Shown here: positions 46,979-61,590 of the stretch, piece by piece
Layout of the letters: each line of letters begins with the position of its first letter
How positions within the stretch are numbered: position 1 is the first letter of the stretch
Position numbers and translations under genes: made by a program
The notes under the pieces: generated by a model
What the model was told of the DNA's origin: nothing
Databases searched by the model: none
The model's input: only the letters and a program-made list of their open reading frames with translations
Virus record (IMG/VR): IMGVR_UViG_3300028920_000032
Span: 32,001 to 96,000 of that record
Direction: 5' to 3' (one strand)
DNA: 64,000 nt
Source: a virus

Positions 46979-46987
46979 TGTTATATT

Positions 46988-47623
46988 TTAATACCCCGTG
47001 TCTATCCTAAATTTATTACATTGATTTTTTCTACTAAAGACACTCCATAAATCATCTGGAGATAAACCAATACCCCTAAATATAAGATTAAAAAATTTGT
47101 AATATACTTGCTCAAATCTTTCTTCAAAGATGAGCATGTCAGTAAGATATTGACTTTTCTTCCATGGTCTTATTTTTAATTTATTGCATGTTATTCCTAT
47201 TTGATATATAATGTCTATTATATATGGATCTAATATTTTCAAATTTGTTACTATAGTTTTGGGGATTGGAGTGTAAACCCAAAGCTCATGTAAAGATTTA
47301 AATTTGTGGAAATCCCATCCATATAAAATATAAGAACTAATTAAAAAATTGAGCGAATCACTAATTTCTTCATATATATGTTCAATTCTCTCACCTTCTA
47401 TTATAGCTTCTCTCATTTCCATAAGCTCTTCAACAACACGAATTTCTAAAAAATCTTTCATAGCTTGTTGACCTTCAAATGTGTCAATATCAACTGGTAA
47501 ATCTAAATCTTTTATTGAGACTTCAAACTTTTTATAATAGCTGACTAAAGCTTTCATTTTTTCAAATATTGCAGCCGTTACATCTCCATGATATTTTTCA
47601 GCTTGGTAATCTAATATGTTCAT
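46988..47623 (-). CDS. All-alpha (dimeric dUTPase/MazG-like) dNTP pyrophosphatase, possible dCTPase
   Basis: EELME...EEISD, RPWKK, KNQCNKFRIDTGY. Confidence 0.8.
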   Translation of the reverse strand: MNILDYQAEKYHGDVTAAIFEKMKALVSYYKKFEVSIKDLDLPVDIDTFEGQQAMKDFLEIRVVEELMEMREAIIEGERIEHIYEEISDSLNFLISSYILYGWDFHKFKSLHELWVYTPIPKTIVTNLKILDPYIIDIIYQIGITCNKLKIRPWKKSQYLTDMLIFEERFEQVYYKFFNLIFRGIGLSPDDLWSVFSRKNQCNKFRIDTGY

Positions 47624-47652
47624 TATTCCTCCTAAGATTAATTATGCTATTA

Positions 47653-47940
47653 TTATCTATATTGATCAATCCATTCCCACCATTTGCATGTTCTATTTTT
47701 AGGTATTTCGTTTGTGCTTAAAAGTTTATTTCGTCTTAGATTGTCGCAACTTTCTTCGCCAACATCACTGCTATATGTAGACCATTCAACTTTACGAAAC
47801 CAATAACAATCTTCACAAGTATTATCATTTAGTAGGTTTTTAATTTCTTCACGCTTAGATCTCTTCTCAATATTCTTTTGTGATTTTTTGCGGTTGTATA
47901 AAATCCGTTTTAGTTTCTTGTCTTTTTGTCGTGCACTCAA
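47653..47940 (-). CDS. Small Cys-rich protein
   Basis: REEIKNLLNDNTCEDC...C...CKWW. Confidence 0.6.
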   Translation of the reverse strand: MSARQKDKKLKRILYNRKKSQKNIEKRSKREEIKNLLNDNTCEDCYWFRKVEWSTYSSDVGEESCDNLRRNKLLSTNEIPKNRTCKWWEWIDQYR

Positions 47941-47943
47941 TTA

Positions 47944-48267
47944 TTATCCTTGCCCTGGAATTAAAATGTTAGACCTTTTCTTTACAACTGTTTTATAAAT
48001 GACATTGTCTTTATCTATTTTTAGATAGTTAATGATATTAATCTTATAGATTTGCATAGCTATAGAATGCAAAATATTATCAGAAACTTTCTGAATTATA
48101 TATTCAATTTTATTTGGGCCTACTGGCTGAATACTTATATCATATGTTTTAGCAGAATCTAAAGTTAAATATTCATTTGTGTCTTCAAGGATTGAATCTT
48201 TATCGACAAATAATACTCTACCATTAGATAGACATATTAGTTTGAAACTTTCTTTTGATATGTCCAA
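47944..48267 (-). CDS. Hypothetical protein
   Basis: ORF with GGAGG SD. Confidence 0.55.
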   Translation of the reverse strand: MDISKESFKLICLSNGRVLFVDKDSILEDTNEYLTLDSAKTYDISIQPVGPNKIEYIIQKVSDNILHSIAMQIYKINIINYLKIDKDNVIYKTVVKKRSNILIPGQG

Positions 48268-49540
48268 TTGCTTCCTCCTTATTATTTATTTTGTTTTCAA
48301 GTTGTAAATCTACAACTTCATTTAATATTTCTTTAAATAGTGGTCCGGGTTTAAAACCTAACTCAATAAGATCATGTCCAGTTACTAATGGACTCGGCTT
48401 AATTTCTTCTGGAGTCCACTCATTTAATTTCTTTTCTAAGAAATCAGCATGAGAAGTGTCACCATGTGAACTTGCTTTATCAGCTCGCATTACTTTAATC
48501 AAATCTTCTATATAAGGATGTGCCAATAGTTTCTTTAGTTTAGAAGTTTTCAATTTAATCGGATTAACCATATGATTATAAACTAACCAGCAAATATGTT
48601 CAATCTCTTCATTTGAAAATCTAAGTTCTTCAAGAGCTTTTCTAGTAATATCAGCACCAACCTTATGATGTCCTCTTGTAGTAATTCGACCATCGACAAC
48701 TTTATGAGTAGCTGGTTTACCGACATCATGAAATAGTGTGGCTAATTTAATAATATAAGATTCATCTCTTACAAGTTCTAATGCTCGAAATGTATGTATT
48801 AGAGCGTTACCTTCTGGATGCCATTTTGGGTCTTGCTCTTCGTTTTCTAACATGGCAATATCGGGAAATATATACCACAATATATGAGTATCAATTAGAA
48901 GATGTAGAAAAGAATGTGGATGTCTATATTCTAGACATTTAACTATTTCTTCTCGTATTCTTTCAGGAGCAATTTGTTTAATATTTATTCCATTACCACG
49001 AACTGCAGTATAAGATAAAAAATCTACTGTCGGAAATTCTAACTTGATTGCAAATCTTATAAATCTTAATATTCTCAATTTGTCTTCATCAATTCTGTCG
49101 TCTGGATTTCCAACAAAGCGTAAAATTTTATTTTTAATATCATCTTGCCCACCAACAAAGTCATATATCTTATCTGCAATCGGATCATAGAATAAGGCGT
49201 TGCAAGTAAAATCTCTTCTTTTAGCATCTTCTTCCATAGTTGAAAATGTAACCGAATTGGGCCTGCGACCATCAGTATAGTCGCCGTCGCTACGAAATGT
49301 GGCCACTTCAAAATCTACTCCATTTACTCTGATGAGAATAACTCCAAATGCTTTACCGACTGATTTTGTATATTTAAATAAAGCTTCTACTTGATCTGGT
49401 GTTGCTGATGTGGCAATATCATAGTCATGTGGTGTTTTGCCTAGTAGCATGTCTCTGATTGCTCCACCTGCAAATACAGCTTGATAGCCGTTTTTTTGGA
49501 GTCTTTTAATTATTTTTATTGCACTTTTCTTAATGTTCAT
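48224..49540 (-). CDS. cca: CCA tRNA nucleotidyltransferase with HD domain
   Basis: GGAIRD, DYDIAT, EVATFR, RRDFTCNA, EDKLRILR, ERIREE, HPEG..LIH, LFHDVGKP. Confidence 0.92.
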   Translation of the reverse strand: MNIKKSAIKIIKRLQKNGYQAVFAGGAIRDMLLGKTPHDYDIATSATPDQVEALFKYTKSVGKAFGVILIRVNGVDFEVATFRSDGDYTDGRRPNSVTFSTMEEDAKRRDFTCNALFYDPIADKIYDFVGGQDDIKNKILRFVGNPDDRIDEDKLRILRFIRFAIKLEFPTVDFLSYTAVRGNGINIKQIAPERIREEIVKCLEYRHPHSFLHLLIDTHILWYIFPDIAMLENEEQDPKWHPEGNALIHTFRALELVRDESYIIKLATLFHDVGKPATHKVVDGRITTRGHHKVGADITRKALEELRFSNEEIEHICWLVYNHMVNPIKLKTSKLKKLLAHPYIEDLIKVMRADKASSHGDTSHADFLEKKLNEWTPEEIKPSPLVTGHDLIELGFKPGPLFKEILNEVVDLQLENKINNKEEAIGHIKRKFQTNMSI

Positions 49541-49563
49541 AGTTTAATTATAGTTTCTTATCG

Positions 49564-49667
49564 AAACTTGCGTCTTGTACTTCTAACCACTTAAGTGACT
49601 CATGTGACCACCGGCTATTATGTACATTTGGCTTCCACTTTTTGTATGTTCGATCTAGCGCAAGTTT
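49564..49667 (-). ncRNA. Candidate structured non-coding RNA (about 104 nt)
   Basis: ORF-free, GC-enriched gap closed by a perfect 9-bp stem AAACTTGCG/CGCAAGTTT with a nested hairpin on the minus strand. Confidence 0.4.
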
Positions 49668-49671
49668 TGTT

Positions 49672-49950
49672 TTATCTTTTTTTGTGAATCTCATCTTTAA
49701 ATTCCTGATAATGTTTTAATAGTTCTGGATCGTAATCTTTTGGTAAAAAATACTTGTAATCACAAAAATTATATTCGTCAATTACCATTCCTGAATGTTC
49801 TGGGTGCGTACAAACAATCCAATCTGATTTTACATGACAGTTAGAATAAAAGCAACCTTCGCATTTTATATTTCTAAGCATTGCTTTGGTTTTAGTATTC
49901 CGTTTTTTATCACTCAAATGAAATCCTCGGCTTAATAGCAACTTTACCAC
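49672..49950 (-). CDS. Small Cys-rich protein (TKAMLR-CxxC)
   Basis: KTKAMLRNIKCEGC; start possibly TTG at 49917. Confidence 0.6.
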   Translation of the reverse strand: MVKLLLSRGFHLSDKKRNTKTKAMLRNIKCEGCFYSNCHVKSDWIVCTHPEHSGMVIDEYNFCDYKYFLPKDYDPELLKHYQEFKDEIHKKR

Positions 49951-50368
49951 CAGCAGAAGTCAATTCGAAAGGAGCATCTGTAAATCTTTCTGCCCATAAC
50001 AATATATGTTTTTTTTCATTTATGATTATATATCCATAATATTTTCTTGCGTCTTTAATGTTAAAAATAACTTCTTGATGCTCAGCACAATATTTATTTT
50101 TTATTTGATCTGAACCACAAGTCCATTCTTTTAATTCAAAGCTTTCAGCAGTAGTAATATAGTCATTTATTTGATCATGTTTAGTTGGATACCAGTCATT
50201 AGAATATAAATATATTCTAGTATCTTTTGTGATATGCTCTAAAACTTCTTTTAAAAGTTGATAATTTACTACTAATCCAAATAGCGCACGCGGTTTATTT
50301 TTAAGTGCTTTCCCAGCCAACTTGCGTAGTTTCATTTTAGTTTCTTCTTTTTTGCTTAATCTTAGCAT
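49910..50368 (-). CDS. Hypothetical protein with KKEETKMKLR tag
   Basis: ORF in operon. Confidence 0.55.
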   Translation of the reverse strand: MLRLSKKEETKMKLRKLAGKALKNKPRALFGLVVNYQLLKEVLEHITKDTRIYLYSNDWYPTKHDQINDYITTAESFELKEWTCGSDQIKNKYCAEHQEVIFNIKDARKYYGYIIINEKKHILLWAERFTDAPFELTSAGGKVAIKPRISFE

Positions 50369-50377
50369 GTAAAATTC

Positions 50378-50557
50378 CTATTGAACAAATAGTTCTTTGA
50401 AATATTCATAATTACACCTCATCTCAAACGCTCTAACATTAATATCAAACTTAGTACAACTTCCAGCATCAATAATACAAGACAAATTGCTTAAAAAATG
50501 TGCACATTGGAAACATTTTCTTTCTCTAAGCATTGCTTTGGTGTTTTCTTTTGTCAT
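50378..50557 (-). CDS. Small Cys-rich protein (MTKENTKAMLRERKCFQC)
   Basis: Motif family member. Confidence 0.6.
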   Translation of the reverse strand: MTKENTKAMLRERKCFQCAHFLSNLSCIIDAGSCTKFDINVRAFEMRCNYEYFKELFVQ

Positions 50558-50729
50558 AAATTGGATCCCTATGATAACGTTCATAATTACACAAGCAATT
50601 ATTTTTTATAGCTTCTTTATAAACTTTACAATACAATACAGAATCTCTGTTAGTTATAATTGCCGTACTATATATACAAGTTGTACAGTGCGCATTTCTT
50701 AATGCAGCTTTAAGTTGTTCTTTTGTCAA
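50526..50729 (-). CDS. Small Cys-rich protein (MTKEQLKAALRNAHCTTC)
   Basis: Motif family member. Confidence 0.6.
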   Translation of the reverse strand: MTKEQLKAALRNAHCTTCIYSTAIITNRDSVLYCKVYKEAIKNNCLCNYERYHRDPIYDKRKHQSNA

Positions 50730-51979
50730 AAGAATTTTAACCTTGTTTTTCTGGCTGGATTTAAAAATCTCTCAAAGATGAATTTATTTTTTATAGGATC
50801 TAACTTAGTTATACCCATAAGATATGTTACAAGTGAAGCCGAAACCGACCCTCTTCCCGGTCCAATGGCAATATTTTCTTTTCGACAAAAATTTACTATG
50901 TCATTAATTAAAAGAAAATAATCTATTAGCTCCATATTTTTGATTGTTTGCAATTCATGTTCTACTCTGTCCATATAAAATTCAACTTCATCTTTTGGTA
51001 TATAACCTTGCTTTAGCTTTTCTTCAAATCCATTAATAACTATTTCTTGTAATTTTTCCATGCCTTTTGTATAATGTGGTAATCTTGGTGGATGTTCTAG
51101 ATAAACCTCTTCGATAGTATTAGTTATTAAGTCTGTGTTTTTAACAGATTGAATAAAAACTTCTTCAGTAAAAATTGGATCATTTTTATATAACTCATTC
51201 CAGTTTGCATATAATTCTTGTTCAGTTTTTAACCACAAATCTTGAGCAGTAAAACTCCAGCCTTTGCCTTCTTCTAAATCTTTTACAGTTTTCTTGCTTT
51301 GAAGCAATAAAGAAAGTTGATGTTCATGACTGTCTTCAGGTGTTAAGTAATGTGCATCATTTGTTATTATAGTAGGAACATTATGTTTCTTGGCTATCTG
51401 TATTAACTGAATATTCATTTTAGTCTGCTCTTCCCAATCCATTATTTGTAGTTCAATAAAAAATCTATTTGGAAAATGTTTTTTCATAAGTTTTATGAAG
51501 TTATCAGCTTCTGCAATATTCTTTGTCACAAGAAACTGAGATAATGTGCCTCTCATGCAAGCTGTGGCTGCTATAACACCTTCACTATGTTCAAATAAAT
51601 ATTCATAATCCATAATTGGTTTTCTGTAGAAATGTTTCCAAGAATCATTATGTATTTTTATAATATTTCTATAACCAATTTCATTCTGAGCTATTAATAC
51701 AATATGATCAGGCTTACCATCTTTTTCAACTAAAAAATTTTCTCTGTCTAAACGAATATATCCTTCAATACCAAATATTGGAATAAGTTTGTTTTTTCTA
51801 CACTGATTATAAAGCTCGATCCAACCCCCGATTGAACCGTGATCGGTGATGGGTACATATTTCTTGTTATTGTCAAGAGCGTGTTTCACTAAATCACTAG
51901 TTTTCATAATACCATCACGAAGTGAATCTATGCTGTGTACGTGCAAATTGATATAATTTGAGTTTATTTTTATTTTCAT
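50726..51979 (-). CDS. dnaE: DNA polymerase III alpha, N-terminal half (PHP domain plus first part of palm)
   Basis: LHVHS...DG, TDHG, GIEGY, TNDAHY, GPGRGS, FERFLNPAR then stop 7 residues later. Confidence 0.92.
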   Translation of the reverse strand: MKIKINSNYINLHVHSIDSLRDGIMKTSDLVKHALDNNKKYVPITDHGSIGGWIELYNQCRKNKLIPIFGIEGYIRLDRENFLVEKDGKPDHIVLIAQNEIGYRNIIKIHNDSWKHFYRKPIMDYEYLFEHSEGVIAATACMRGTLSQFLVTKNIAEADNFIKLMKKHFPNRFFIELQIMDWEEQTKMNIQLIQIAKKHNVPTIITNDAHYLTPEDSHEHQLSLLLQSKKTVKDLEEGKGWSFTAQDLWLKTEQELYANWNELYKNDPIFTEEVFIQSVKNTDLITNTIEEVYLEHPPRLPHYTKGMEKLQEIVINGFEEKLKQGYIPKDEVEFYMDRVEHELQTIKNMELIDYFLLINDIVNFCRKENIAIGPGRGSVSASLVTYLMGITKLDPIKNKFIFERFLNPARKTRLKFF

Positions 51980-52008
51980 GTAAATATATATGTCACATAT
52001 TTTTATAT
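51980..52008. promoter_or_regulatory. Back-to-back ACATA-N9-ATG elements for dnaE-N (-) and the endonuclease (+)
   Basis: TATGT-C-ACATA quasi-palindrome; each ACATA is exactly 9 nt from an ATG. Confidence 0.6.
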
Positions 52009-52788
52009 ATGATTAAGCATATATGTAAAATTTGTAAAAAAGTTTTTTACACAAAAAAGAAAAAAAGTAAATATTGTTCACGAAAGTGTTATTACGTTTG
52101 GAATAAAGGAAATAACCCTATGAAGGGTAGAAAACATTCAAAAGAAGCAAAGCGAAAAATTAGTAAAAGTAGCAAAGGTAATCAGTATGCTAAAGGATAT
52201 AAACACACAAAAGAAGCTATTGAAAAAATTAGAAATTCTGCTACTGGAAGGAAACATGCAAAAGAATATATTAATAAAATGAAAAAACGTAAAGGCAAAA
52301 ACAACCCATTTTTTGGTAAAAAGCATTCAAAAGAAACTAAAGAAAAATGGTCGAGGAGTGGTAAAAATAATAGTATGTATGGGAAAAAACATACAGAAAA
52401 ATTTAAAAAAGAACAATCATTAAGAGCAAGAAAAAATTTTTATAAAATGTTGAAGAAAATAAATAAAAATTATCATCCTTCTTATAACATTAATGCATGC
52501 AAATGGTTTGAACAATTTGATAGAATAAAAAACACTATCGGTAAATATGCAACAAATGGTGGTGAATTTTATATAAAAGAATTAGGCTACTGGCTTGATT
52601 ATATAAACCACGAATTAAAAATTATAATCGAGTGGGATGAGGAAAGACATTATAGATATAATAAATTAAAAAAGAAAGACATAAAAAGACAAAAAGAAAT
52701 AGAAAAACATTTTCCAAAATATAGATTTTTCAGAATTCGTGAGTCAGAAGCTATTTTAGTTGAAGATTTTACGAAAATTTTAAAATAA
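52009..52788 (+). CDS. Free-standing homing endonuclease: Zn finger, NUMOD3 repeats, Vsr/PD-(D/E)xK-like domain
   Basis: CKIC..YCSRKC; GRKHSKEAKRKIS repeats; GYWLDY...IIIEWDEERH. Confidence 0.82.
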   Translation: MIKHICKICKKVFYTKKKKSKYCSRKCYYVWNKGNNPMKGRKHSKEAKRKISKSSKGNQYAKGYKHTKEAIEKIRNSATGRKHAKEYINKMKKRKGKNNPFFGKKHSKETKEKWSRSGKNNSMYGKKHTEKFKKEQSLRARKNFYKMLKKINKNYHPSYNINACKWFEQFDRIKNTIGKYATNGGEFYIKELGYWLDYINHELKIIIEWDEERHYRYNKLKKKDIKRQKEIEKHFPKYRFFRIRESEAILVEDFTKILK

Positions 52789-53237
52789 TAGCAGACAGAT
52801 AAGATTATTGTTTAATAAACGTCTACAGTTTTTCCATTGTTATTTAGTAAATAAATTTTATATTTAGAATCTACCCATATTTCTTCTTGATTTCCAGAAA
52901 CATAAGTAACAAGAATTCTTGTTATATATCTTATATTCTCTTCTATTTTGGATCTAAACTCAAAAATGATTTTATAGCCAACCCAACCCATTTCGCCTTC
53001 ACCAGTTATAAAATATCCGACATCATCATCGTGTTGATATATAATTGGCGGATGAGCTGCTTCTTGGTTATTTTTATCCAGTAAATTGCATGAGGCTACG
53101 CTAAACTTTTGTTTTTCTGATACCTCTACACTTTTAATATCGTCAAAATAAAAAGTGTTATTGTTGCTTTTGTAATTTTCTACAATCTTTAAAATCATGT
53201 CTTCCTCCTTAATTTCTGTCTATCTATCTGTCTGCTA
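52789..53237. repeat. Perfect 13-bp inverted repeat TAGCAGACAGATA / TATCTGTCTGCTA flanking one gene
   Basis: Arms at 52789-52801 and 53225-53237. Confidence 0.88.
52812..53198 (-). CDS. Hypothetical protein (MILKI...YLLNNNGKTVD)
   Basis: AAGGAGG SD and GCATA motif at 53246-53250. Confidence 0.7.
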   Translation of the reverse strand: MILKIVENYKSNNNTFYFDDIKSVEVSEKQKFSVASCNLLDKNNQEAAHPPIIYQHDDDVGYFITGEGEMGWVGYKIIFEFRSKIEENIRYITRILVTYVSGNQEEIWVDSKYKIYLLNNNGKTVDVY

Positions 53238-53252
53238 GAATTAAATATGCAT

Positions 53253-53600
53253 TTAAAGTCTAAACTTAATTATTATAATGTCATCTTCTTTTGGATCTCT
53301 TTTATAAGTAAAAGCTATTGCAAAAATTGGCTCTCCAATGGAGTCTAAATCCGGAGCGCACATAATAATTTTTGAGCTTCTTATAGAATTTGGCCATTTA
53401 GATGTTTCAATTTCTTTTAATGATTTCTCGATCATATCAACCACTGTTCTAAAAAACATATTTTCACTTTTAATACTAAAAATATCTTTATGATAAAATG
53501 TAGAGATTTTCAGTATCTGCTCGAATACTTCATCTAAGTCTGGATATTTTAGAGTCATCTTAGTATACCATTTTTTATTTACAGTTTGTGTTTTCGTCAT
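53253..53600 (-). CDS. Hypothetical protein
   Basis: ORF in operon. Confidence 0.55.
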   Translation of the reverse strand: MTKTQTVNKKWYTKMTLKYPDLDEVFEQILKISTFYHKDIFSIKSENMFFRTVVDMIEKSLKEIETSKWPNSIRSSKIIMCAPDLDSIGEPIFAIAFTYKRDPKEDDIIIIKFRL

Positions 53601-53603
53601 ATT

Positions 53604-53957
53604 CTATATTTTCAATACAATTGTTTTAAGTGTGGTATTTGGTGCTATCCTATAACGCACTGTATATCTAATAGTATTACTGTCAATAAAAGCTGGCAGT
53701 GTAAACCCAACAATCTCATACTCAATATTTTTATTATAGTATTTTAAATTTTCCATTACATCTTGTAGTTGACCTTTTATTTCACATAACAACATATTAG
53801 TAAGTGATTTATATAAATTCTCTCTTTTTATAATATTCATATAAGCAATTATTTCTACTGCTACATAGTCGCTATTACTATGGCGCAAACTTGCTTTTGT
53901 ACGTTCTTTTTTCATTAAATCATTGTGTTGATAATAATTATTAGGTATTAAACTCAT
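53604..53957 (-). CDS. Hypothetical protein with KKERTKASLR tag
   Basis: ORF in operon. Confidence 0.55.
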   Translation of the reverse strand: MSLIPNNYYQHNDLMKKERTKASLRHSNSDYVAVEIIAYMNIIKRENLYKSLTNMLLCEIKGQLQDVMENLKYYNKNIEYEIVGFTLPAFIDSNTIRYTVRYRIAPNTTLKTIVLKI

Positions 53958-54262
53958 TTTAGTCCTTGTTCATCTTCAACATCTTTTATGAATTGTCTCA
54001 TATATCCTTTTAGTTCTTCAAACTGTTCTTCACTGTATGATTTAATGTCATGACTAAACATATCACCACGTTTTTCGCTTTCTATCATTGCTTCTTTTGT
54101 TAGCTCAATGCACTTATCAATATCTTCTTTTAATTCTTTATAAGTAAATGCACGAACTGTACAAATCTCAAATATTTGTTTATTGCGTTCTATTGGATCA
54201 ATTTTTGAGTATGAAGCCCAGAATGTATACCAAACTGAACCACCCCATCTGCTATAACTCAT
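53954..54262 (-). CDS. Hypothetical phage protein (MSYSRW...WYTFW)
   Basis: ORF with GAGAGG SD. Confidence 0.6.
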   Translation of the reverse strand: MSYSRWGGSVWYTFWASYSKIDPIERNKQIFEICTVRAFTYKELKEDIDKCIELTKEAMIESEKRGDMFSHDIKSYSEEQFEELKGYMRQFIKDVEDEQGLK

Positions 54263-54276
54263 TTCTTTTTCCTCTC

Positions 54277-54531
54277 TTAATGATATAGTGCATCACAATT
54301 TATGCGATACTCTCCATTTTCCCATAAAGATTTATGGTCTATTAAATCAGTAAGCTTTACTTTTTTACCATTTCTTTTTATTTGAGGTCGGAAATTTCCA
54401 TCGCCATCTGAGTAAAAGCAAACCCAGCGACTACCACCGACATTTCCCAAATGTTGCATTTGAGCAAATAAAGATTCTAATGCTAAAGCTTGAGCTTCAT
54501 CAATGTTGTCAAATTCAAATTTTACTTTCAT
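54277..54531 (-). CDS. Hypothetical phage protein (GGSRWVCFYSDGDGNFRP)
   Basis: ORF with AGGAG SD. Confidence 0.6.
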   Translation of the reverse strand: MKVKFEFDNIDEAQALALESLFAQMQHLGNVGGSRWVCFYSDGDGNFRPQIKRNGKKVKLTDLIDHKSLWENGEYRINCDALYH

Positions 54532-54764
54532 ATTAATCTCCTACACTTACTTCTTTTTCTTCATAATTATATATGTCATCATTATCAATCAGTTTGTCTA
54601 AAGCACCTTCAATTGCATTATCTATACGGTTGTTAACTTCGCGATCTATAAGAGGTGTGTCGATTTTTAATGTGATAGTAACTTTCCTCCAATTATTACA
54701 AATTTTCATGTTATTCTCCTATACACAAATATGTCATTATAAATTGAGATATAAGTTTTATAGA

Positions 54765-55211
54765 TTATTTATTTTCGTTTAACTTCTTTGCTTTTATTAA
54801 TAGAGGTTTCATATAACTATAGCAAATTTCTATAGCTTCTTCAAATGATATGAAAGCTGCATAGTCAATTTCATCTTTTTGTATATTAATTGCTTTCTTG
54901 TCAGACAGTTTGCCACCAGTATATTTTGCTAAAAATCCATGTACCGATTTGTCTTTTCTTGTGACTCTACCGACGTATTCAATTATTCGGCACTTGATTC
55001 CAGTTTCTTCTTGTGTTTCACGCAAAGCTGCTTCTTCAACTTTTTCACCAAAATTAACATGGCCTTTAGGGAAACCCATCTTTTTATTTTTCCAAGAAGA
55101 GCCAGTTGCATGCACCATAAGAACATGAGGTATACCATCAAAATCTTTAACGATAATACAGCCAGCTGAGACTTTTTTATTTATTCTGGCAAATACTTCA
55201 TCTAACTTCAT
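54765..55211 (-). CDS. Nudix hydrolase (Ap4A-hydrolase-like)
   Basis: SAGCII, FPKGHVNFGEKVEEAALRETQEETG Nudix box. Confidence 0.92.
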   Translation of the reverse strand: MKLDEVFARINKKVSAGCIIVKDFDGIPHVLMVHATGSSWKNKKMGFPKGHVNFGEKVEEAALRETQEETGIKCRIIEYVGRVTRKDKSVHGFLAKYTGGKLSDKKAINIQKDEIDYAAFISFEEAIEICYSYMKPLLIKAKKLNENK

Positions 55212-55546
55212 TTTACTACCTTAAATATTTGGTTGAGCATATTAAAAATCAACTTGTGCCTATTTTCATGTTTGCAAAATGTTATATTATTTTTGTTCTC
55301 ATATGCTTTTTTTACTATATCTGACCAAGTAAACCAACCATGCGTTCTTGGTAAAGAGCCTTTATATATTCGATAGTTAGGATCAATTTTAATTTCATTA
55401 AAAGTTTTTGACAACCTTACTTTTATACAATAGATATATTCTTTGTCTTTTCGTTGAATAAAATAATATTCAAAATCTACATCAGTTATATTATATCTAA
55501 AAGAATCACCAATTTTTAAATCTTTAAGAAACTTTGGAATAGTCAT
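55208..55546 (-). CDS. Hypothetical protein with HKLIFNMLNQIF tag
   Basis: ORF preceded by two AAGATAA motifs. Confidence 0.55.
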   Translation of the reverse strand: MTIPKFLKDLKIGDSFRYNITDVDFEYYFIQRKDKEYIYCIKVRLSKTFNEIKIDPNYRIYKGSLPRTHGWFTWSDIVKKAYENKNNITFCKHENRHKLIFNMLNQIFKVVK

Positions 55547-55594
55547 GTATTTATCTTACAACTTTATCTTAAAAAAAAGAATATAACAAGAATT

Positions 55595-57871
55595 TTAAGC
55601 CCGAATTATTTGTATTGCAGGTTTGTTGCCTACTTCGCTAGGCCAGCATAATTTCAGCCAATTAGAGTCATTCTTTATTGCAATCTTTACTAATTGACCT
55701 TTAGTAAATTTACCAATAATATCTTTTCTGTTTTGTTCTCCAAATGCAAATACACTGATAGCTTCTCTGAAGTCTGTTATAGTAATGAGAACATACTCAT
55801 TACCACTCTTTTTAGATTTTTTTATTTTTACATCATCTATATAAGCAGCTAATACCCAAAGCTTTTTATCTTGATCTCGATCAGATATTGTTTTAAGTCC
55901 ACAATATTTTGTACCTTCTAATATATCTTTAAAACCATGAAATGAATATTTGCAATATTCATATTCTATTTGTATTAACTGGTAAATTTCAGGCATATTC
56001 TTTTGAAATTCATCTAATTCTTTTTTTATTTTTTTATCCCAAGATGTACCGCCACTTTTTAATACCTTCTTACCTTTCTCGGCTAAGTACAACAACCACT
56101 TATAAGGCCTTTCTTCAATAGTATCATCAAAATCAGCAGCACCAGAAAATATACAACCTTTTACTACCGATTTGTTTATTTTATTTTTGACTGCTTTTTT
56201 TAAGAAATCTTCCCAATTTTTATATGGTCTATACTTTATAATTGATTCAGCTCCTTTGCCAGTGTCTTTAATATAAGAAAGTGCGAAGTATATTCCATCT
56301 TTATCAGACTCAAATAGTATACCAGATTTATTAATGTTTGGCCGATGAACTTTAATTCCAGCTTTATTAATAGAATTGATGTATTTTCCTAATGAAGATT
56401 GTCCATGTTTTTCCTGGCCTCTATCAATAGTATTTAAAGAAGCAGTCCAGAATTCAAGAGGATAATAACATTTTAAATAAGCTTGGACATAACCCATTAG
56501 AGAATAAGCATATGAGTGTGGCATATTAAATGCATATTTTGCTTGAAGCATTATTTGTTTCCACTGATCATCAGCATATTTAGTAGCTTCTTTAATATCC
56601 CATCCATCTTCTCTCATTATTTTAGGAACAGCAGCATCCATGTACATTGATTGATATTTTTCACATTCTTTCAACATAGCTTGTCTGTTAGTATCAGAAG
56701 TTTTTGCTTTACCTATCTTTCTAACTAATCTTCTTAATCGATCAGCTTCAAAAATTGAGAAGTCAGCTAATTCCATAGGCACTTGCATTAATTGTTCTTG
56801 ATATATCATTAAGCCTCTAGTGTGGTTATATACACTATGTAAACATTTAGGCTCTCGTCTTTCAAGTGGTGCCGTCACATAATCATCTACTTCAGCCGCT
56901 CCAGGGCGAATTAATGTACTTATATTACTGATATCTTGTAGAGACTGTGGCTTGATTCTCCTAACCGCCTCTACAAACACTTTAGATTCCATTTGAAATA
57001 TATTATCAAGTTGTAATGTGTTAATAAACTTATACACTTTAGGATCATCTTGTGGTAGTAAATAAATGTCTTTAGGTAAATTATTCTTGGGATATTTATG
57101 ATTAATTTCTTCAACACATAAACGAATTTGTTCTACACATGCAAGACCCAAGATATCAACTTTGATTACTCCAAGAGCTTCCAATTCTTTTATTGCGCCT
57201 GACTCTTGCCAACCAGTAACATAACCTTTGTTTGCACGAATTATAGGAATGATATCAGTAAGATCGTCAGACGAAACGACGAAACCTCCTGCATGTTGTC
57301 CTACATTTTTCTTCATGCCAGTTAATTTCGTAAGAGATCTAGCAACTTCAGGATGCTTCTTCAAGAAATTATCAACTTCTGGATATTTTTCTCTAATTTC
57401 TTCTTCAGATAAATCTTTGTCATCATCAGAAACTAATTTGCTAATTTTTAAATAAGCAAACGGTGAAATCCCATAAACACGAGAAATTTCTTGGACAGAG
57501 CCTTTAACACCTAATGTTCCATATGTTCCTATTGAAACACAATTATCTTCACCGAATTTTTCTTTTAGCCAGGCTTTAATAGAATCACGACCACTCGGGG
57601 AGAAATCACAATCGACATCTGCCATGTCTGCTAACTGCCAATGATGTTGTAGTTTATCAGGATATGGAGCTATAGATAATAAATAAAATGTTAAAATGTT
57701 TTCATAATTTTTTTCTATTGTTTTTTTGTTGTTAAAAATAGAACAAATTTTTGATAAATCATCAGACTGCATTTTTAAAGCTTTAAGCTCTTCATCTAAA
57801 TAAGATTTCTCTTCATCAGATAATTTTTCTCTCTTCTTGGCTAAAAATTGAATCAATTCTCTTTTCGTCAT
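55595..57871 (-). CDS. dnaE: DNA polymerase III alpha, C-terminal half (catalytic palm, thumb, fingers, HhH, OB)
   Basis: ADVDCDF, GQHAGG, KVDILGL, IFQMES, IRPG, IYQEQLM, YAFNMPHSYAY, PNINKS. Confidence 0.93.
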   Translation of the reverse strand: MTKRELIQFLAKKREKLSDEEKSYLDEELKALKMQSDDLSKICSIFNNKKTIEKNYENILTFYLLSIAPYPDKLQHHWQLADMADVDCDFSPSGRDSIKAWLKEKFGEDNCVSIGTYGTLGVKGSVQEISRVYGISPFAYLKISKLVSDDDKDLSEEEIREKYPEVDNFLKKHPEVARSLTKLTGMKKNVGQHAGGFVVSSDDLTDIIPIIRANKGYVTGWQESGAIKELEALGVIKVDILGLACVEQIRLCVEEINHKYPKNNLPKDIYLLPQDDPKVYKFINTLQLDNIFQMESKVFVEAVRRIKPQSLQDISNISTLIRPGAAEVDDYVTAPLERREPKCLHSVYNHTRGLMIYQEQLMQVPMELADFSIFEADRLRRLVRKIGKAKTSDTNRQAMLKECEKYQSMYMDAAVPKIMREDGWDIKEATKYADDQWKQIMLQAKYAFNMPHSYAYSLMGYVQAYLKCYYPLEFWTASLNTIDRGQEKHGQSSLGKYINSINKAGIKVHRPNINKSGILFESDKDGIYFALSYIKDTGKGAESIIKYRPYKNWEDFLKKAVKNKINKSVVKGCIFSGAADFDDTIEERPYKWLLYLAEKGKKVLKSGGTSWDKKIKKELDEFQKNMPEIYQLIQIEYEYCKYSFHGFKDILEGTKYCGLKTISDRDQDKKLWVLAAYIDDVKIKKSKKSGNEYVLITITDFREAISVFAFGEQNRKDIIGKFTKGQLVKIAIKNDSNWLKLCWPSEVGNKPAIQIIRA

Positions 57872-57887
57872 AACCTTTTGTCCTTAG

Positions 57888-58091
57888 TTATAAACATGTG
57901 CTAACACATTCTTTTATAAAAGCTTGTCTATTTTCTTTGACAAGAAAAAGATTGCACCAATCAACATATAACTTAGCTTTCTCTTCATTCCAGAAACAAG
58001 CTATTGGTTTTATTGTTCCTCTCTCATAAACTAAATATCTACAACCAATTCTTGTTTTATATTCTTTAGTTTCATAATAATACTTATCCAT
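57888..58091 (-). CDS. Hypothetical protein
   Basis: ORF with GGGGGA SD-like site. Confidence 0.5.
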   Translation of the reverse strand: MDKYYYETKEYKTRIGCRYLVYERGTIKPIACFWNEEKAKLYVDWCNLFLVKENRQAFIKECVSTCL

Positions 58092-58102
58092 CTAATTCCC
58101 CC

Positions 58103-58762
58103 TTATAATATTCCCCTTCCATGTTTTTGTAACCATTTAGGTATGTCTTTCCATGGTACCAAATTTGGTACTATTTCTTCAGTAGGTTGTTCTACTGTTA
58201 TATAACATAATGTAGAAACTTTTGCTAATTCATAAGCTTCAAAAAATTTCATGTTTGGATTGCTTTTCATTATCGCACTCAAACAAGAATTAGTATTTTT
58301 CTTTTCTTCTTTGTCATTGTTTTCGAACTTCATCATTGTTATATAATAACCATATTTATAAACTACTTCTAAAAATTTTTCTTTAACTTTTTGTATACCA
58401 TAGTTTTTATATATGCACTCAAGTTTATCAAGAATTCTATTTCTAGTATTTGAATGTTCTTTTACAAACAATCCATATGGCTGTTTTTTGTTTTTGTATA
58501 TATATTCAAAATAATTTTTTGTTACTAATAAAGATCTATTGCTTTCACATAAGCCCGATAAAGCGCCGGCACTTATTAATTGATGTCTTAATGCTGTAAG
58601 ACTAGTTTGATGCATCTCATGCTTATTGTCAATTCTAAATTTAAACAAAGTAAACCATCCTTCTATCGCACCTTTCCATTGAGAGTTTGCATATTCAACT
58701 AACTCATCATAGCTATATGAAGTTACTAACTTTTTTACAGTTTTTGAATTTATTTTTTTCAT
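58103..58762 (-). CDS. Hypothetical protein
   Basis: 219-aa ORF. Confidence 0.6.
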   Translation of the reverse strand: MKKINSKTVKKLVTSYSYDELVEYANSQWKGAIEGWFTLFKFRIDNKHEMHQTSLTALRHQLISAGALSGLCESNRSLLVTKNYFEYIYKNKKQPYGLFVKEHSNTRNRILDKLECIYKNYGIQKVKEKFLEVVYKYGYYITMMKFENNDKEEKKNTNSCLSAIMKSNPNMKFFEAYELAKVSTLCYITVEQPTEEIVPNLVPWKDIPKWLQKHGRGIL

Positions 58763-58788
58763 AATTGTTTTTTGTTTTATACTTTAAT

Positions 58789-58811
58789 AAAAAGGGTGGC
58801 ATTAGCCACCC
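58789..58811 (-). terminator. Intrinsic terminator
   Basis: GGGTGGC-TAAT-GCCACCC plus T-tract on the minus strand. Confidence 0.85.
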
Positions 58812-58841
58812 ATAGAGGAGGTATATTATGGATGCATTAAC

Positions 58842-59090
58842 TCATACATCACCATTTTCATCAATTTTTTTGTCTTCATAAGGACCAAGTATCCTTCGTT
58901 CGATTTCTGTGGCACATTGTCTTAATTCTCCACAAAAGTTCTTTAGACTATTATAATTATGCTCTATAAAATATTTGGCATAATAGTAAAGTAAAAAATT
59001 TAAATCACCATTTGCTTTAATTTTAACTACTGCCATTTGCGTAGCAATTGAAACTAATTTATCTCTATCATTTTGTTTTATATAAGGCAT
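58842..59090 (-). CDS. Conserved phage protein (MPYIK...GDLNF...ERRILGPYEDKKIDENGDV; DUF6899-like)
   Basis: Recognised motif; AAGGAG SD before MPYIK. Confidence 0.7.
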   Translation of the reverse strand: MPYIKQNDRDKLVSIATQMAVVKIKANGDLNFLLYYYAKYFIEHNYNSLKNFCGELRQCATEIERRILGPYEDKKIDENGDV

Positions 59091-59247
59091 GTTTGTTCTC
59101 CTTAAAATACTTACAGTTTGTTGGACAATCACAATAGATCCATGATGTTATTGCACAATACCCTCGTGTTGTAAAATAATTAACACAATTATTACATGGA
59201 GGTTCGTCTCTCAACAGTCTTTTTGTTTCTTCTTTTACTAAATCCAT
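59068..59247 (-). CDS. Small Cys-rich protein not in the ORF track (MDLVKEETKRLLRDEPPCNNC...)
   Basis: Manual translation, 59 aa. Confidence 0.65.
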   Translation of the reverse strand: MDLVKEETKRLLRDEPPCNNCVNYFTTRGYCAITSWIYCDCPTNCKYFKENKHALYKTK

Positions 59248-59405
59248 TTCTCTTCAAAGTAACGACAATTTTCTGTATGATCTGGAAAACTATAAGATGC
59301 GATTTTACAATAACTATACAAATAATAAAATTTACAATTTTTACATTTAAAAATCTGATTATCTCTAAGTAGCTCTTTAGTTTCTTCTTTAGTTGTTTTC
59401 TTCAT
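59238..59405 (-). CDS. Small Cys-rich protein not in the ORF track (MKKTTKEETKELLRDNQIFKCKNC...)
   Basis: Manual translation, 55 aa. Confidence 0.65.
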   Translation of the reverse strand: MKKTTKEETKELLRDNQIFKCKNCKFYYLYSYCKIASYSFPDHTENCRYFEEKWI

Positions 59406-59677
59406 ATGCAACTATTTCCCATCTTTGTTTTTTATGCTTAGCAACCGATAAACAAATTTGTGTTAATGCGGCGCTAACAATTACTCCACTTATTATGAAT
59501 AATATTGTTATCATTTTTTCTTCCAAACTTTCTTGGCGCGGGCCACATAGTTAAGATCATAAGGATTAAAATTATTAGCCTTCTTCTTATTTTTTTTATC
59601 AGCTGTAAAAATTGCCGTTAATATGCAACTAACAATTATACTAGCTACTATACCAATTACTATTTTGACTGCAATCA

Positions 59678-59890
59678 TCAATCATCTCCTTTCTTTAAAC
59701 TAAATGCATTTTTTATTGCAATTCTTGGGTGCCAACTTTTCTTACATGAAATAGTATCTTTGGCACAAAATTGACATAAATCAAAACTGAAGAATTTATC
59801 GCCACGTAATAAAGCTTTAGATTCTTCTCTTTTTCTTATTTTTTTGATTCTTGTTAGTACTACCAAAACCACCTTCATTTCTATAGTCAT
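59678..59890 (-). CDS. Small Cys-rich protein (KREESKALLR...CQFC); start uncertain
   Basis: Motif family member overlapping the dUTPase 3' end. Confidence 0.45.
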   Translation of the reverse strand: MTIEMKVVLVVLTRIKKIRKREESKALLRGDKFFSFDLCQFCAKDTISCKKSWHPRIAIKNAFSLKKGDD

Positions 59891-60377
59891 CTTGTTTCAT
59901 CCAATCATATAACTGTTCTTCATCAACTAATATTGGTTCACAACTTAATACTGGAATTAAAACTAATTGTACAATCTTCATTCCAGGCTTAATTAAAAAT
60001 TCTTCATCACTAACATTATGCATATCGATATGAATTTCACCACTATAAAATGTGTCAATTACTTGTGCACCTACTAGCAATTCGTTTTTAGATGCAACTC
60101 CTGATTTATTTAAGAATAAAGCCATGTAACCATATGGAACTTCAATTTTAATACCAGAAGGTATACATATATTTGAATTCGGATAAAGCACTATATACGA
60201 TTCATCACTATATGGATCATTACTCCAACTTAATGTATGGCGATCATCGTTTTTCTTTTTTAAGTCTTCAATAAATTTTTCAGTAAAGCCGGGAACAAAG
60301 AAATCTAATCCAGCATCAGTCGCATGTCCTCTTGATGGTTTTTTCACATTTCTTACTAATGAATATTTTAATAACAT
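59817..60377 (-). CDS. dut: Trimeric dUTPase
   Basis: DAGLDF, PSGIKIEVP.GY, KSGVA, VIDTFYSGEI, RNEGGFGST. Confidence 0.93.
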   Translation of the reverse strand: MLLKYSLVRNVKKPSRGHATDAGLDFFVPGFTEKFIEDLKKKNDDRHTLSWSNDPYSDESYIVLYPNSNICIPSGIKIEVPYGYMALFLNKSGVASKNELLVGAQVIDTFYSGEIHIDMHNVSDEEFLIKPGMKIVQLVLIPVLSCEPILVDEEQLYDWMKQDDYRNEGGFGSTNKNQKNKKKRRI

Positions 60378-60393
60378 TTATTTCTCCTTATTT

Positions 60394-60729
60394 TTAAATT
60401 AATTCACCTATTTCTTTACTAATCTCTTCTAAGTTGTTTTCTAATTTTTTTAGCTTTTCTTGCAGAACTCTAATTTCTTCTTCTTTTTTATCATACTTAA
60501 ATTGTAAATCTGTTATTTTCTTAGCTTTGCTTATTAACTCTTTTGGTAGAACAAGATCTGTTAAAATATAATCTGGATCCCAGCTAGCTTCAGTTTCAAA
60601 ATCATCACTTTTGTCACTGTAAATTTTTACAATTGTAAGGCATAACTCACCTCCATCAATAACAGCTCCAACATACTCACCTGTTTTTAATTTTTTTGCT
60701 AACTTTTCGTCAAATTTTAACCATTCCAT
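60394..60729 (-). CDS. Hypothetical protein with coiled-coil tail
   Basis: ORF with AGAGG SD. Confidence 0.55.
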   Translation of the reverse strand: MEWLKFDEKLAKKLKTGEYVGAVIDGGELCLTIVKIYSDKSDDFETEASWDPDYILTDLVLPKELISKAKKITDLQFKYDKKEEEIRVLQEKLKKLENNLEEISKEIGELI

Positions 60730-60740
60730 ATTTTCCTCTT

Positions 60741-60983
60741 TTATTTTCTTTCAGTAAGATCAATTTGGTAACTTTTTCTTTTAGTTTTTTTATTCTTGTC
60801 ATTCTCAATATATGTTATGCTAGAAATTAAAATGGGTACATTTAAATCATTATTATTTAAAGTATTTGAATAACTAACAACTTTTACACTATTCTCTTTT
60901 ATCCAACTGTTTATTATTTCATCAGATTTTTTAATAGAAGATTTACTCTCAAAAACAAAATTTTTTACTAATATCATTTTCAC
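60741..60983 (-). CDS. Hypothetical protein
   Basis: ORF with GGGAGG SD. Confidence 0.55.
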   Translation of the reverse strand: MKMILVKNFVFESKSSIKKSDEIINSWIKENSVKVVSYSNTLNNNDLNVPILISSITYIENDKNKKTKRKSYQIDLTERK

Positions 60984-61537
60984 CTCCCAGCAATATTTAA
61001 GCTTGCTAAAAACTTGTTGTTTACATCAATTTGCTTCACTGTTATATTATTATCTTTTAATATCTCTATTGCTTTATATCCCTCTTCTCGATCATATAAT
61101 GTATGATAATATACATGTTTTATTCCAGCGTGTATGACAGACTTTACGCAAAATAAACATGGAGAATATGTTGTATATATGCTTCCACCTTCTACTGAAA
61201 TTCCTTTTCTAGCACAATAAATTATTGCATTCATCTCAGCATGTAATTCATGTTCAATTGCCCAAGTGTGATGAACTTCTTTAAACGACCAATGATCTAA
61301 ATATTTTTTAAATGTTGGAAACAAACTATTTCTGGTTTCTTGTGGAATTTCTTTATATTGTTTAAGAAAGTGGTCATAACAATGTTCTTTGCCAGGAGCA
61401 TTTCCATTATAGCCAGTAGATACTGCTCGATTATCAACGGAGATTACAGCACCAGCTTTTACACGAGCACATGTAGATCTCTGCGCAAACAATAAAGCTG
61501 TTTGCATCAAAATTTCATGTATGCTTAGACGTTTCAT
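60980..61537 (-). CDS. dCMP deaminase
   Basis: RSTC.R.K.GAVI, TGYNG, HAEMNAI, SPCLFC. Confidence 0.95.
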   Translation of the reverse strand: MKRLSIHEILMQTALLFAQRSTCARVKAGAVISVDNRAVSTGYNGNAPGKEHCYDHFLKQYKEIPQETRNSLFPTFKKYLDHWSFKEVHHTWAIEHELHAEMNAIIYCARKGISVEGGSIYTTYSPCLFCVKSVIHAGIKHVYYHTLYDREEGYKAIEILKDNNITVKQIDVNNKFLASLNIAGR

Positions 61538-61565
61538 ATATCCTCCTTTATATATAAATATGCAT

Positions 61566-61590
61566 AAAAAAAGGGTTACCGAAGTAACCC
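61566..61590 (-). terminator. Intrinsic terminator with cUUCGg loop
   Basis: GGGTTAC-TTCG-GTAACCC plus T-tract on the minus strand. Confidence 0.9.

Follow-up and report, generated by a model that had tools for sequence, protein, structure and literature searches.

A phage DnaE polymerase cut through its nucleotidyltransferase core into two intein-free genes in permuted order

Gene anatomy and position of the break

The window, by which we mean the whole 64,000-nucleotide stretch analysed here (positions 32,001 to 96,000 of the IMG/VR record IMGVR_UViG_3300028920_000032, from a large uncultured phage), carries the catalytic subunit of a DnaE-type polymerase not as a single polypeptide but as two ORFs, 3.6 kb apart and in inverted order. 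A preliminary description made from the sequence alone had placed the pair at 50726-57871, and both ORFs were found there, on the minus strand. The C-half is transcribed before the N-half, and the 3615 nt between them hold eight minus-strand ORFs and one plus-strand ORF. The features of the locus are as follows.

50726..51979, minus strand: DnaE N-half (417 aa), PHP exonuclease domain and first part of the palm
50726..50776, minus strand: codons of FERFLNPAR (402-410), the 7-residue tail KTRLKFF and the stop of the N-half
50846..50857, minus strand: codons of the GS motif G375-R-G-S378 in the N-half, which binds triphosphate in the nucleotidyltransferase fold
51958..52788, plus strand: free-standing homing-endonuclease-like gene, divergent to the N-half, whose start it overlaps
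52812..55546, minus strand: eight small intervening genes, one a NUDIX hydrolase (54765-55211), the other seven with no family match
55595..57871, minus strand: DnaE C-half (758 aa), comprising N-terminal module, palm (second part, with the three catalytic Asp), thumb, fingers, HhH and OB
57155..57157, minus strand: codon of D239, third catalytic Asp, in KVDILGL of the C-half (E. coli D555 by alignment offset)
57605..57619, minus strand: codons D85-V-D87-C-D89, catalytic DxD strand of the C-half, translation checked
57626..57871, minus strand: residues 1-82 of the C-half, its helical N-terminal module, in which the motifs YL.EE[IL]K and N..N.L..YLLGI are conserved

In Pfam searches, the N-half matched a PHP domain at residues 12-178 (PF02811, 5e-34) followed by positions 2-100 of the profile PF07733, and the C-half took up the same profile at positions 100-260, followed by the finger domain (PF17657, 5.7e-30), HHH_6 (PF14579, 9.3e-12) and a weak OB match; by structure comparison, C-half residues 655-758 matched OB folds at Z about 10. 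The elements of a DnaE-type, C-family polymerase are thus all present, namely a PHP domain with its nine metal-ligand positions, a Pol-beta-like palm, and fingers, the beta-binding HhH domain and OB, with the palm spread over two polypeptides, since GRGS lies in the N-half and D85, D87 and D239 in the C-half.

Alignment to full-length DnaE, a check proposed in the preliminary description, showed that the halves are complementary exactly at PF07733 position 100 and at Taq residue 459. By phmmer against the PDB, the N-half corresponds to residues 7-459 of Taq Pol III alpha and C-half residues 81-712 to 459-1084; the respective E. coli ranges are 5-398 and 397-889. By alignment offset, S378, R404 and R410 of the N-half are E. 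coli S364, R390 and R396, and D85, D87 and D239 of the C-half are D401, D403 and D555, equivalences that presuppose an alignment free of local gaps, the residue identities having been checked in the translations. With these offsets and checked residues, the dNTP-binding residues and the catalytic aspartates do lie on different polypeptides, as had been proposed, and the C-half has neither a GS motif nor the arginines of its own. The N-half ends 7 residues past R410, and the module of the C-half opens with an ATG.

Conservation, relatives and mobile elements

The same split and order were sought in related phages, and all eight relatives examined (L040, L041/L042, L043, L044, L045, L052 and L053; about 55-77% identical, independent assemblies from JGI, ENA and Logan samples) have both genes on one strand, the C-half followed by the N-half. 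Because the arrangement recurs in eight independent assemblies, it is due neither to chance nor to misassembly, the artefact that the preliminary description had named as a possible refutation. The two halves diverge in parallel, with N/C identities to the window of 71/77, 63/63, 55/56 and 53/55%. The phage collections held no close relative, identity being at most 34% in the INPHARED set and at most 30% in the IMG/VR scan. Further dnaE halves were also sought, and the 158-kb record, which is about 70% complete, gave only the two PF07733 matches; in that same incomplete record there was no PolA or PolB Pfam match (PF00136 included) and none to the DnaN, gp45 or DnaB families.

Conservation was read from two alignments, one of 21 C-half relatives and one of 30 N-half relatives. 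In the N-half, the nine PHP-motif residues (H13, H15, D22, H47, E72, H92, C141, D208 and H210), which match the Taq motifs in the phmmer alignment, are invariant, as are G373, G375, R376, G377 and N407; S378 is nearly invariant, and so is FERFLNPAR within the clade, R410 and T412 included. In the C-half, D85, D87, D89 and D239 are invariant, and the module has its own residues invariant in the clade (E28, N55, N58, L65, P71, H76 and L80).

The absence of inteins reported earlier was upheld: neither half gave a Hint or intein Pfam hit, and no HN-[CST] motif occurs in the helical module of the C-half. Likewise, no N- and C-intein halves flank the break, where there is only the 7-residue tail of the N-half on one side and the helical module on the other. 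The central claim, of a cut through the nucleotidyltransferase core, without an intein and in permuted order, stands. Relatives do carry such elements. L043 has an intein at GRG|S and P0152/P0153 an N-intein right behind GPGRG, and since inteins in relatives target GRG|S, the motif is conserved and needed; split inteins elsewhere in the gene occur in L044 and P0152/P0153. In L048, the DxD codons are interrupted by a group I intron (RF00028, 37.5 bits, E 5e-8, Rfam evalue mode). At both junctions of the window, the small-region Rfam mode that detects the L048 intron gave no match, and there was none over 46000-62000; nothing was found at the gathering score in seven related loci, nor in evalue mode in L009 and L035. 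A dnaE interrupted by a group I intron was rejected for the window, as RF00028 is missing from the junctions and the inverted order bars splicing in cis.

The plus-strand gene at 51958..52788 has NUMOD3 repeats (1.2e-20), a weak Vsr-like DUF559 match (0.0073) and a PHROG assignment as homing endonuclease. In L040, a homologue lies just upstream of the C-half, and a 52-aa remnant lies upstream of the N-half. A gene in pieces with an endonuclease in the break was considered and rejected, as the endonuclease-like gene is found by the 5' end of the N-half instead of in the break, and the halves lack colinearity. In the sister lineage L049, the break is present with a 2-nt gap and without an endonuclease. 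Between C-half and N-half the relatives have from none to seven genes, a variable number, and in L043 the two genes abut; none of the intervening genes of the window holds its position in them, and the NUDIX gene follows the N-half in L043 and L044. The eight intervening genes of the window are variable cargo outside the enzyme. A scan of promoters and terminators gave counts equal to those of shuffles.

We then consider the origin of the module, which in the preliminary description looked like a decayed duplicate of part of the N-half. The module is also present in L049 and L047, and a search of 1.84 billion representatives with its profile returned 17 hits, each N-terminal in its protein and none (0/17) inside a full-length DnaE. 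A colinear hhalign extension through the bridging homologue P0053 favours the duplicate, whereas the direct profile, HMM-against-shuffle, library and structural tests do not. Compared by hhalign, the module (residues 1-78, 21 sequences) gave non-significant E values of 0.33 with the N-half clade and 0.38 with 30 full-length DnaEs; nonetheless, its best alignment coincided with the equivalent RLxYEL helix. A BLASTP comparison of module and N-half yielded an E of 1.5. When the canonical-segment HMM was run against the module and 500 shuffles each, the clade did not rise above its shuffles (289, 236, 225 and 63 of 500), the sole standout being L009 (2 of 500). In the VIA-align comparison of the top Foldseek PDB chains, the module was covered by no alignment to solved Pol III alpha. 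We regard descent from the N-half segment as weakly supported; the module is probably a docking element and may be what remains of the first palm segment.

Predicted assembly and alternative explanations

The AF2 model of the C-half matches Pol III alpha (4IQJ chain A) over 504 aligned residues from residue 94 on (Z 19.8, rmsd 5.7 A); its first 82 residues are predicted to be helical, with a module pLDDT of about 85-90. In the models of each half alone, pLDDT falls below 50 at C-half residues 78-94, which include the DxD strand, and at N-half residues 375-379 and 403-417. In the heterodimer prediction that the preliminary description had proposed, three runs gave an ipSAE of 0.88, and the best of 3 controls scored 0.00; the 0.88 may reflect the memory that the model has of solved single-chain Pol III alpha, our own alignments having been supplied. 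Of 80 solved complexes, 58 attain the ipSAE mark, as do 2 of 110 mismatched pairs. At least 97% of contacts are shared among the runs, and the pLDDT of the partner is 91. The predicted interface includes the GRGS motif and residues 398-417 of the N-half; C-half residue 90 contacts N-half residues 370-373, and residues 27-61 of the module also contact the N-half. The junction elements, of low confidence in each half alone, are confidently paired in the predicted complex, and the prediction supports binding between the two halves.

The most likely reading, and a probable one, is that the two proteins form a heterodimeric Pol III alpha, held together non-covalently, whose active site is composite. 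Of the two models in the preliminary description, it is favoured by the conservation of motifs on each half, by a C-half that is devoid of GS motif and arginines, and by the confidence at the junction. The C-family replicative polymerase of this phage would then be an obligate two-subunit enzyme, whose parts we infer to be translated separately and to assemble non-covalently into an active heterodimer. The 417-aa subunit would bring the PHP domain for proofreading and, from the Pol-beta-like nucleotidyltransferase palm, the elements that come first, a strand and GS loop (GPGRGS) and the FERFLNPAR helix, which would hold the triphosphate of the incoming dNTP, while the 758-aa subunit would bring the metal-binding Asp strand (D85, D87), D239, thumb, fingers, HhH and OB. 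Pairing of the GS strand of the N-half with the DxD strand of the C-half would complete the palm sheet, and the short tail of the N-half together with the helical module, in its presumed docking role, would probably enlarge the interface. The break would have been inherited from an ancestor common to other phage lineages, and the order of the halves could change because they are independent genes; the clade would have fixed the C-half before the N-half, adjacent at first, and the variable small genes and the homing endonuclease would have entered between them later.

The other model of the preliminary description, a self-sufficient remodelled C-half whose module replaces the first palm segment, beside an N-half that acts as a stand-alone PHP exonuclease with a palm relic, appears improbable to us. 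PHP domains can serve as proofreaders, as in DnaE1 enzymes, and the conserved 80-residue module does stand in place of that segment, colinear in hhalign with the segment of P0053; but it has no GS motif and neither arginine, its all-helical prediction offers no strand to the DxD strand, and this strand is unconfident without a partner. Nor does the N-half resemble a relic, as its GRGS and FERFLNPAR show no or almost no variation in 30 sequences and GRG|S is still an intein homing site in relatives. That the two products are joined into one chain, by a trans-splicing intron or an unrecognised protein-splicing element, seems very unlikely. Mobile elements do lie at or near the break in other phages, the group I intron in the DxD codons of L048 among them, and inteins and split inteins occur elsewhere in the gene in relatives; against this, Rfam matched nothing at either junction of the window or over 46000-62000, Pfam gave neither a Hint nor an intein hit, only 7 residues follow R410, and the module opens with an ATG, is helical and is conserved as protein, also in L049 and L047.

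More improbable still is a broken dnaE whose remnants are decaying while another polymerase, of host or phage, replicates the genome. The record is incomplete, at about 70%, which leaves some room for this, but both ORFs are intact, the arrangement is retained in 8 of 8 relatives, and the catalytic residues are invariant in more than 20 and more than 30 relatives, down to 53-55% identity. A chimeric or mis-joined contig is barely conceivable: nothing was found in its favour, and eight independent contigs show the same order and strand.

The heterodimer reading can be extended into a fuller account, which we put forward as possible but rather doubtful. The cut on the DxD side would be old and stably inherited in a broad phage group, the core being always completed in trans through a docking module that is a vestige of the palm. 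If the module is indeed a vestige of the first palm segment, the split would have come about by duplication and complementary decay, not through an intein or endonuclease, and the inverted order by tandem duplication of an adjacent N-C pair with loss of the outer copies.

If the core does assemble from two polypeptides, a palm of the Pol-beta-like kind can bear an interrupted backbone between the elements that bind dNTP and those that bind metal, and the locus offers a natural, evolution-tested split site for C-family polymerases, with possible uses in split-enzyme engineering and in probing the coupling of synthesis to PHP proofreading. The family holds a series of states (adjacent in normal order, separated in normal order, three or more pieces, added split inteins, inverted order) that is a worked example of essential phage genes fragmenting and being reordered under mobile-element pressure. 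There is also a risk for annotation, as such halves are readily labelled partial or truncated, and the phage is then wrongly taken to have no polymerase.

Comparison with known polymerases, whole and split

Every domain and catalytic residue of single-chain Pol III alpha (Taq 2HPI/4IQJ, E. coli 2HNH/5FKU) is also found in the phage pair, although that enzyme is one chain and the phage enzyme two; the N-terminal module of the C-half is extra and aligned to no part of the solved enzymes. In T4-related phages, intein-free genes occur in pieces, such as the family B polymerase gp43A/gp43B and the Aeh1 NrdA split by mobE, and an essential replication enzyme works there as two non-covalent polypeptides in genomes rich in free-standing homing endonucleases. 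Those cases concern another polymerase family, with colinear pieces and the endonuclease gene between them, whereas in the window the order is inverted and the break is older than the local endonuclease. The work of Edgell is cited by Dassa et al. (2009; PMC2677866), who dealt with cyanobacterial DnaE with a naturally split intein and with "fractured" DnaE genes. As in the window, dnaE is there divided over two or more genes, and the relatives L044 and P0152/P0153 have such split inteins too; the halves are, however, joined covalently by protein trans-splicing at other sites (PMC2677866), whereas the junction of the window has no intein parts.

A minimal split Pol III, predicted to be reconstituted from two separate genes, was described in group 2.2 jumbo phages (Iyer et al., 2021, Viruses 13:63, PMC7824862), the nucleotidyltransferase domain being shared there between an N-terminal protein that binds NTP and a C-terminal one that binds Mg and template. 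Compared by description, its break falls between the NTP-binding and Mg-binding subdomains, as in the window. That version lacks the PHP and other DnaE domains and stands alongside a family B polymerase (PMC7824862), whereas the halves of the window are full-size (PHP, fingers, HhH, OB) and the 158-kb record, about 70% complete, has no PF00136 match.

The split is not peculiar to this phage, as sister lineages and cultured Cellulophaga phages share the break in normal order, and the break is ancestral to a wider phage group. The Cellulophaga phages phi13:1, phiST and phi19:2 (genus Cbastvirus) have a two-gene DnaE, gp038 and gp039 of KC821625, present in annotation and without discussion in the literature searched. 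The break point is the same, gp038 carrying ...FERFLNSGR and gp039 starting 18 residues before PDIDTDF; both are annotated "DNA polymerase III alpha subunit" and, as in the window, have no intein domain call. The Cellulophaga genes are adjacent and in normal order, whereas those of the window are apart and swapped; the tail of gp038 has 55 residues against 7 in the N-half, and gp039 is devoid of the 80-residue N-terminal module. The novel features are the swapped order, which is conserved, and the 80-residue N-terminal module on the C-half, conserved as well.

Anatomy of the divided polymerase genes

The source is a linear IMG/VR virus record of 158 kb with a completeness estimate of 70%, and the window, of about 30% G+C, is coding almost wholly on the minus strand. 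The two halves of the DnaE (Pol III alpha) polymerase and their neighbours are arranged as follows.

Features of the polymerase region
48224-49540 (-): CCA-adding/poly(A) polymerase-family enzyme with an HD domain, flanking the polymerase genes
50726-51979 (-): N-half (P0001), 417 aa; PHP domain at residues 12-178 (Pfam, 5e-34) and PF07733 profile positions 2-100
51958-52788 (+): free-standing gene of homing-endonuclease-like type; NUMOD3 repeats number five, and DUF559 (Vsr-like) matches weakly
Between the halves (-): eight small ORFs, one a NUDIX hydrolase, the rest without family
54765-55211 (-): the NUDIX hydrolase
55595-57871 (-): C-half (P0002), 758 aa; PF07733 positions 100-260, finger domain, HHH_6 and a weak OB match (Pfam)
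59817-60377 (-): dUTPase/dCTP-deaminase-like gene, flanking the polymerase genes

The halves are separated by 3615 nt, with the C-half first in transcription and the eight minus-strand ORFs and the plus-strand endonuclease-like gene in between, which bears out the permuted order and the spacing of about 3.6 kb given in the preliminary description. Against solved structures, the N-half spans residues 7-459 of Taq Pol III alpha and 5-398 of the E. coli enzyme, and C-half residues 81-712 correspond to Taq 459-1084 and residues 81-580 to E. coli 397-889; this coverage is complementary, as is that in Pfam, so that the halves join where FERFLNPAR meets the DxD strand, without gap or overlap. By the alignment offsets, with local gaps assumed absent, S378, R404 and R410 of the N-half correspond to S364, R390 and R396 of E. 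coli, and D85, D87 and D239 of the C-half to D401, D403 and D555, the same residue mapping that had been proposed from the sequence. The break site lies inside the minimal Pol-beta-like nucleotidyltransferase core and separates the triphosphate-holding elements (strand, GS loop and helix) from the strand bearing the two metal-binding aspartates, such that neither protein contains a complete core. A search for additional dnaE halves in the 158-kb record (about 70% complete) returned the two PF07733 matches and no further piece, and Pfam gave no match to PolA or PolB in it.

The endonuclease-like gene runs divergently from the N-half, whose start it overlaps by 22 nt; in a relative, L040, a homologue lies directly upstream of the C-half (9340-9873) and a 52-aa remnant upstream of the N-half (14037-14192, opposite strand). 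The N-half tail KTRLKFF (50726-50749) has a conserved C-terminal [RK]LK[FI][FIV] with a loose likeness to the beta-clamp-binding pentapeptide, QL[SD]LF; no DnaN or gp45 family member was found in the 158-kb record.

Conservation, splicing and age of the break

A search of 5.8 billion proteins gave a C-half clade of about 34 members (55-81% identity; full-length ones 734-760 aa), none of them with a PHP domain, and an N-half clade of about 38 members (53-71% identity; mostly 414-422 aa), with at least 12 contigs, of identical length in each case, common to both match lists. The same split, with the C-half followed by the N-half on the same strand, was found in all eight relatives looked at, from independent JGI, ENA and Logan assemblies. 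The genes between the halves vary among them: there are none in L043, where stop and start abut, two in L041/L042, L052 and L053, four in L045, five in L044 and seven in L040, and in both L043 and L044 the NUDIX gene of the window is placed downstream of the N-half. The halves diverge in parallel, with N-half and C-half identities to the window of 71/77, 63/63, 55/56 and 53/55% in four relatives. The split arrangement is neither an assembly artefact nor a remnant. The order dUTPase, C-half, N-half, CCA-enzyme is maintained across relatives.

In the alignment of 30 N-halves (A2), the PHP-motif positions H13, H15, D22, H47, E72, H92, C141, D208 and H210 are invariant, as are G373, G375, R376, G377 and N407, and conservation is at least 90% for S378, nearly all of FERFLNPAR and the tail residue T412; in the alignment of 21 C-halves (A1), D85, D87, D89 and D239 are invariant together with seven positions of the N-terminal module (C-half residues 1-82). 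This pattern indicates that selection for catalytic function acts on both halves. In L043 (P0157; 12212-13885) an intein sits precisely at GRG/S of the N-half (…VHN/S), and in P0152 and P0153 the N-half terminates in an N-intein straight after GPGRG (GPGRG/C), which implies an additional split-intein break, as read from sequence. In L044 (9024-11821) a split intein placed between fingers and HhH cuts the C-half itself into a Hint-bearing product of 547 aa and a second one of 344 aa, giving a three-gene DnaE with one intein-free and one intein junction. These mobile elements are an independent pointer to selection for the catalytic function.

The absence of inteins from the halves of the window, claimed earlier, was upheld: neither half has a Hint or intein match in Pfam, the N-half ends 7 residues beyond R410, and the first 82 residues of the C-half begin with an ATG start and are predicted by AF2 to be helical with high confidence. 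Rfam searches found no intron at 46000-62000, nor at either junction when small regions were used, and the same kind of search recovered, as a positive control, a group I intron in L048 (9122-9436; RF00028, 37.5 bits, E 5e-8, under the gathering score). The inverted gene order rules out cis-splicing. Judged on their sequences, the DnaE halves of the window are not spliced. In L048, a temperate-looking 65-kb phage, this intron interrupts the same site, within the DxD codons of dnaE, which means that the family P0185-P0190/P0194, ending in ...NPERVTP[AP]DKQ, looks split but is probably spliced. In L009 and L035 the break at the same site adjoins LAGLIDADG-like genes.

In a FastTree built from 55 sequences and 388 columns of the N-half region, the clade groups with four further lineages in which the N-half ends at the identical point (SH-like support 0.91; one inner node unsupported).

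Arrangement of DnaE pieces in other lineages
P0160/L049: normal order, adjacent, 2-nt gap
P0167: normal order, six genes between
P0182/L047: normal order, three pieces
P0168/L046: several pieces with a clamp-loader-like gene among them; those for finger and HhH lie upstream of the N-half

From this shared endpoint, the break probably predates the clade, and changes in gene order probably came later. The DnaE of L046 (3201-9194) is in at least three pieces (finger 3201-3968, HhH 6456-7499, N-half 8001-9194), its clamp-loader-like gene is DNA_pol3_delta2/AAA, and its finger piece begins with an intein-C-like end, ...IVHN/S; no piece with the DxD strand was found there.

Predicted assembly and the N-terminal module

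With AF2, the C-half alone had a mean pLDDT of 78 and was unconfident exactly at 78-94 (DxD strand), and the N-half alone a mean of 86, unconfident exactly at 375-379 (GRGS) and 403-417. We predicted the heterodimer put forward in the preliminary description from C-half residues 1-575 and the full N-half, supplying the clade alignment for each, in three runs and three controls. The predicted pair reached an ipSAE of 0.88 in all three runs against 0.00 for the best control (n=3); 58 of 80 solved complexes attain that mark, as do 2 of 110 mismatched pairs. Agreement among the runs was at least 97% of contacts, with a partner pLDDT of 91. The predicted interface comprises N-half 368-381 and 398-417 and C-half 75-91 and 232-241, C-half residue 90 contacts N-half 370-373, and module residues 27-61 also contact the N-half. 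The model favours binding of the two halves without showing it, as the high score may reflect their likeness to solved single-chain enzymes.

In a composite core, the N-half would contribute the triphosphate-holding strand, the GS loop and the helix, and the C-half the metal-binding aspartates. We consider it likely, from conservation and the model, that the DnaE halves of the window assemble non-covalently into a Pol III alpha heterodimer whose active site is composite in this way and whose PHP proofreader is probably active. The rival reading, in which the C-half is a self-sufficient polymerase and the N-half merely an exonuclease, fits poorly, because the GS motif and the arginines are missing from the C-half whereas the N-half strictly retains them.

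The preliminary description had suggested that the module (57626-57871) derives from the final 80 residues of the N-half by duplication and decay. Direct tests gave no such signal: hhalign returned E 0.33 and 0.38 and BLASTP E 1.5, the module of this clade scored no better than chance in HMM comparisons against shuffles, no structural alignment covered it, and a profile search of 1.84 billion representatives gave 17 matches, at protein N-termini only. What did support the idea was the hhalign of A1 with P0053, a PHP-less homologue with an intact GAGRGS, which is colinear across the module with the GS loop deleted and pairs YLDEELKAL with HLDEELKII and ILTFYLLSIAPYP with SVVCYLLNITSIPP. A motif like N..N.L..YLLGI recurs in the sister-lineage C-halves of L049 and L047. 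A vestigial palm copy is possible, if on the doubtful side. Irrespective of where it came from, the module is both conserved and located in the predicted interface, hence our working idea that it might serve in docking. Five proteins of 67-92 aa (P0206, P0208, P0209, P0211, P0212) match the module profile by themselves and may be truncated gene calls or stand-alone module copies.

Comparison with known divided polymerases

The cultured Cellulophaga phages phi13:1, phiST and phi19:2 have the same-site break, with gp038 and gp039 adjacent, in normal order, and annotated simply as two 'DNA polymerase III alpha subunit' genes. In phi13:1, gp038 (L050 3368-4945) carries a 55-residue tail after FERFLNSGR (…YKLTLEDGSIVELPEGTVVKI…) that resembles the start of a Hint domain without its Cys and may be a dead intein relic.

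Kazlauskas and Venclovas (2011) found viral C-family polymerases E. coli-like in domain organisation and mention no split one. The literature searched gave no account of a full-size, PHP-bearing DnaE with a break at this position, or of the inverted order. We regard the split as real and well conserved, and the mechanism as plausible. Polymerases in pieces, and split Pol III, are already known: split inteins fracture DnaE (Dassa et al., 2009; PMC2677866), and a minimal Pol III catalytic module divided into NTP-binding and Mg-binding parts was predicted in another jumbo-phage group (Iyer et al., 2021; PMC7824862). Three features stand out here: the inverted order and the N-terminal module, both conserved, and the position of the cut, within the minimal catalytic fold of an enzyme of full size.
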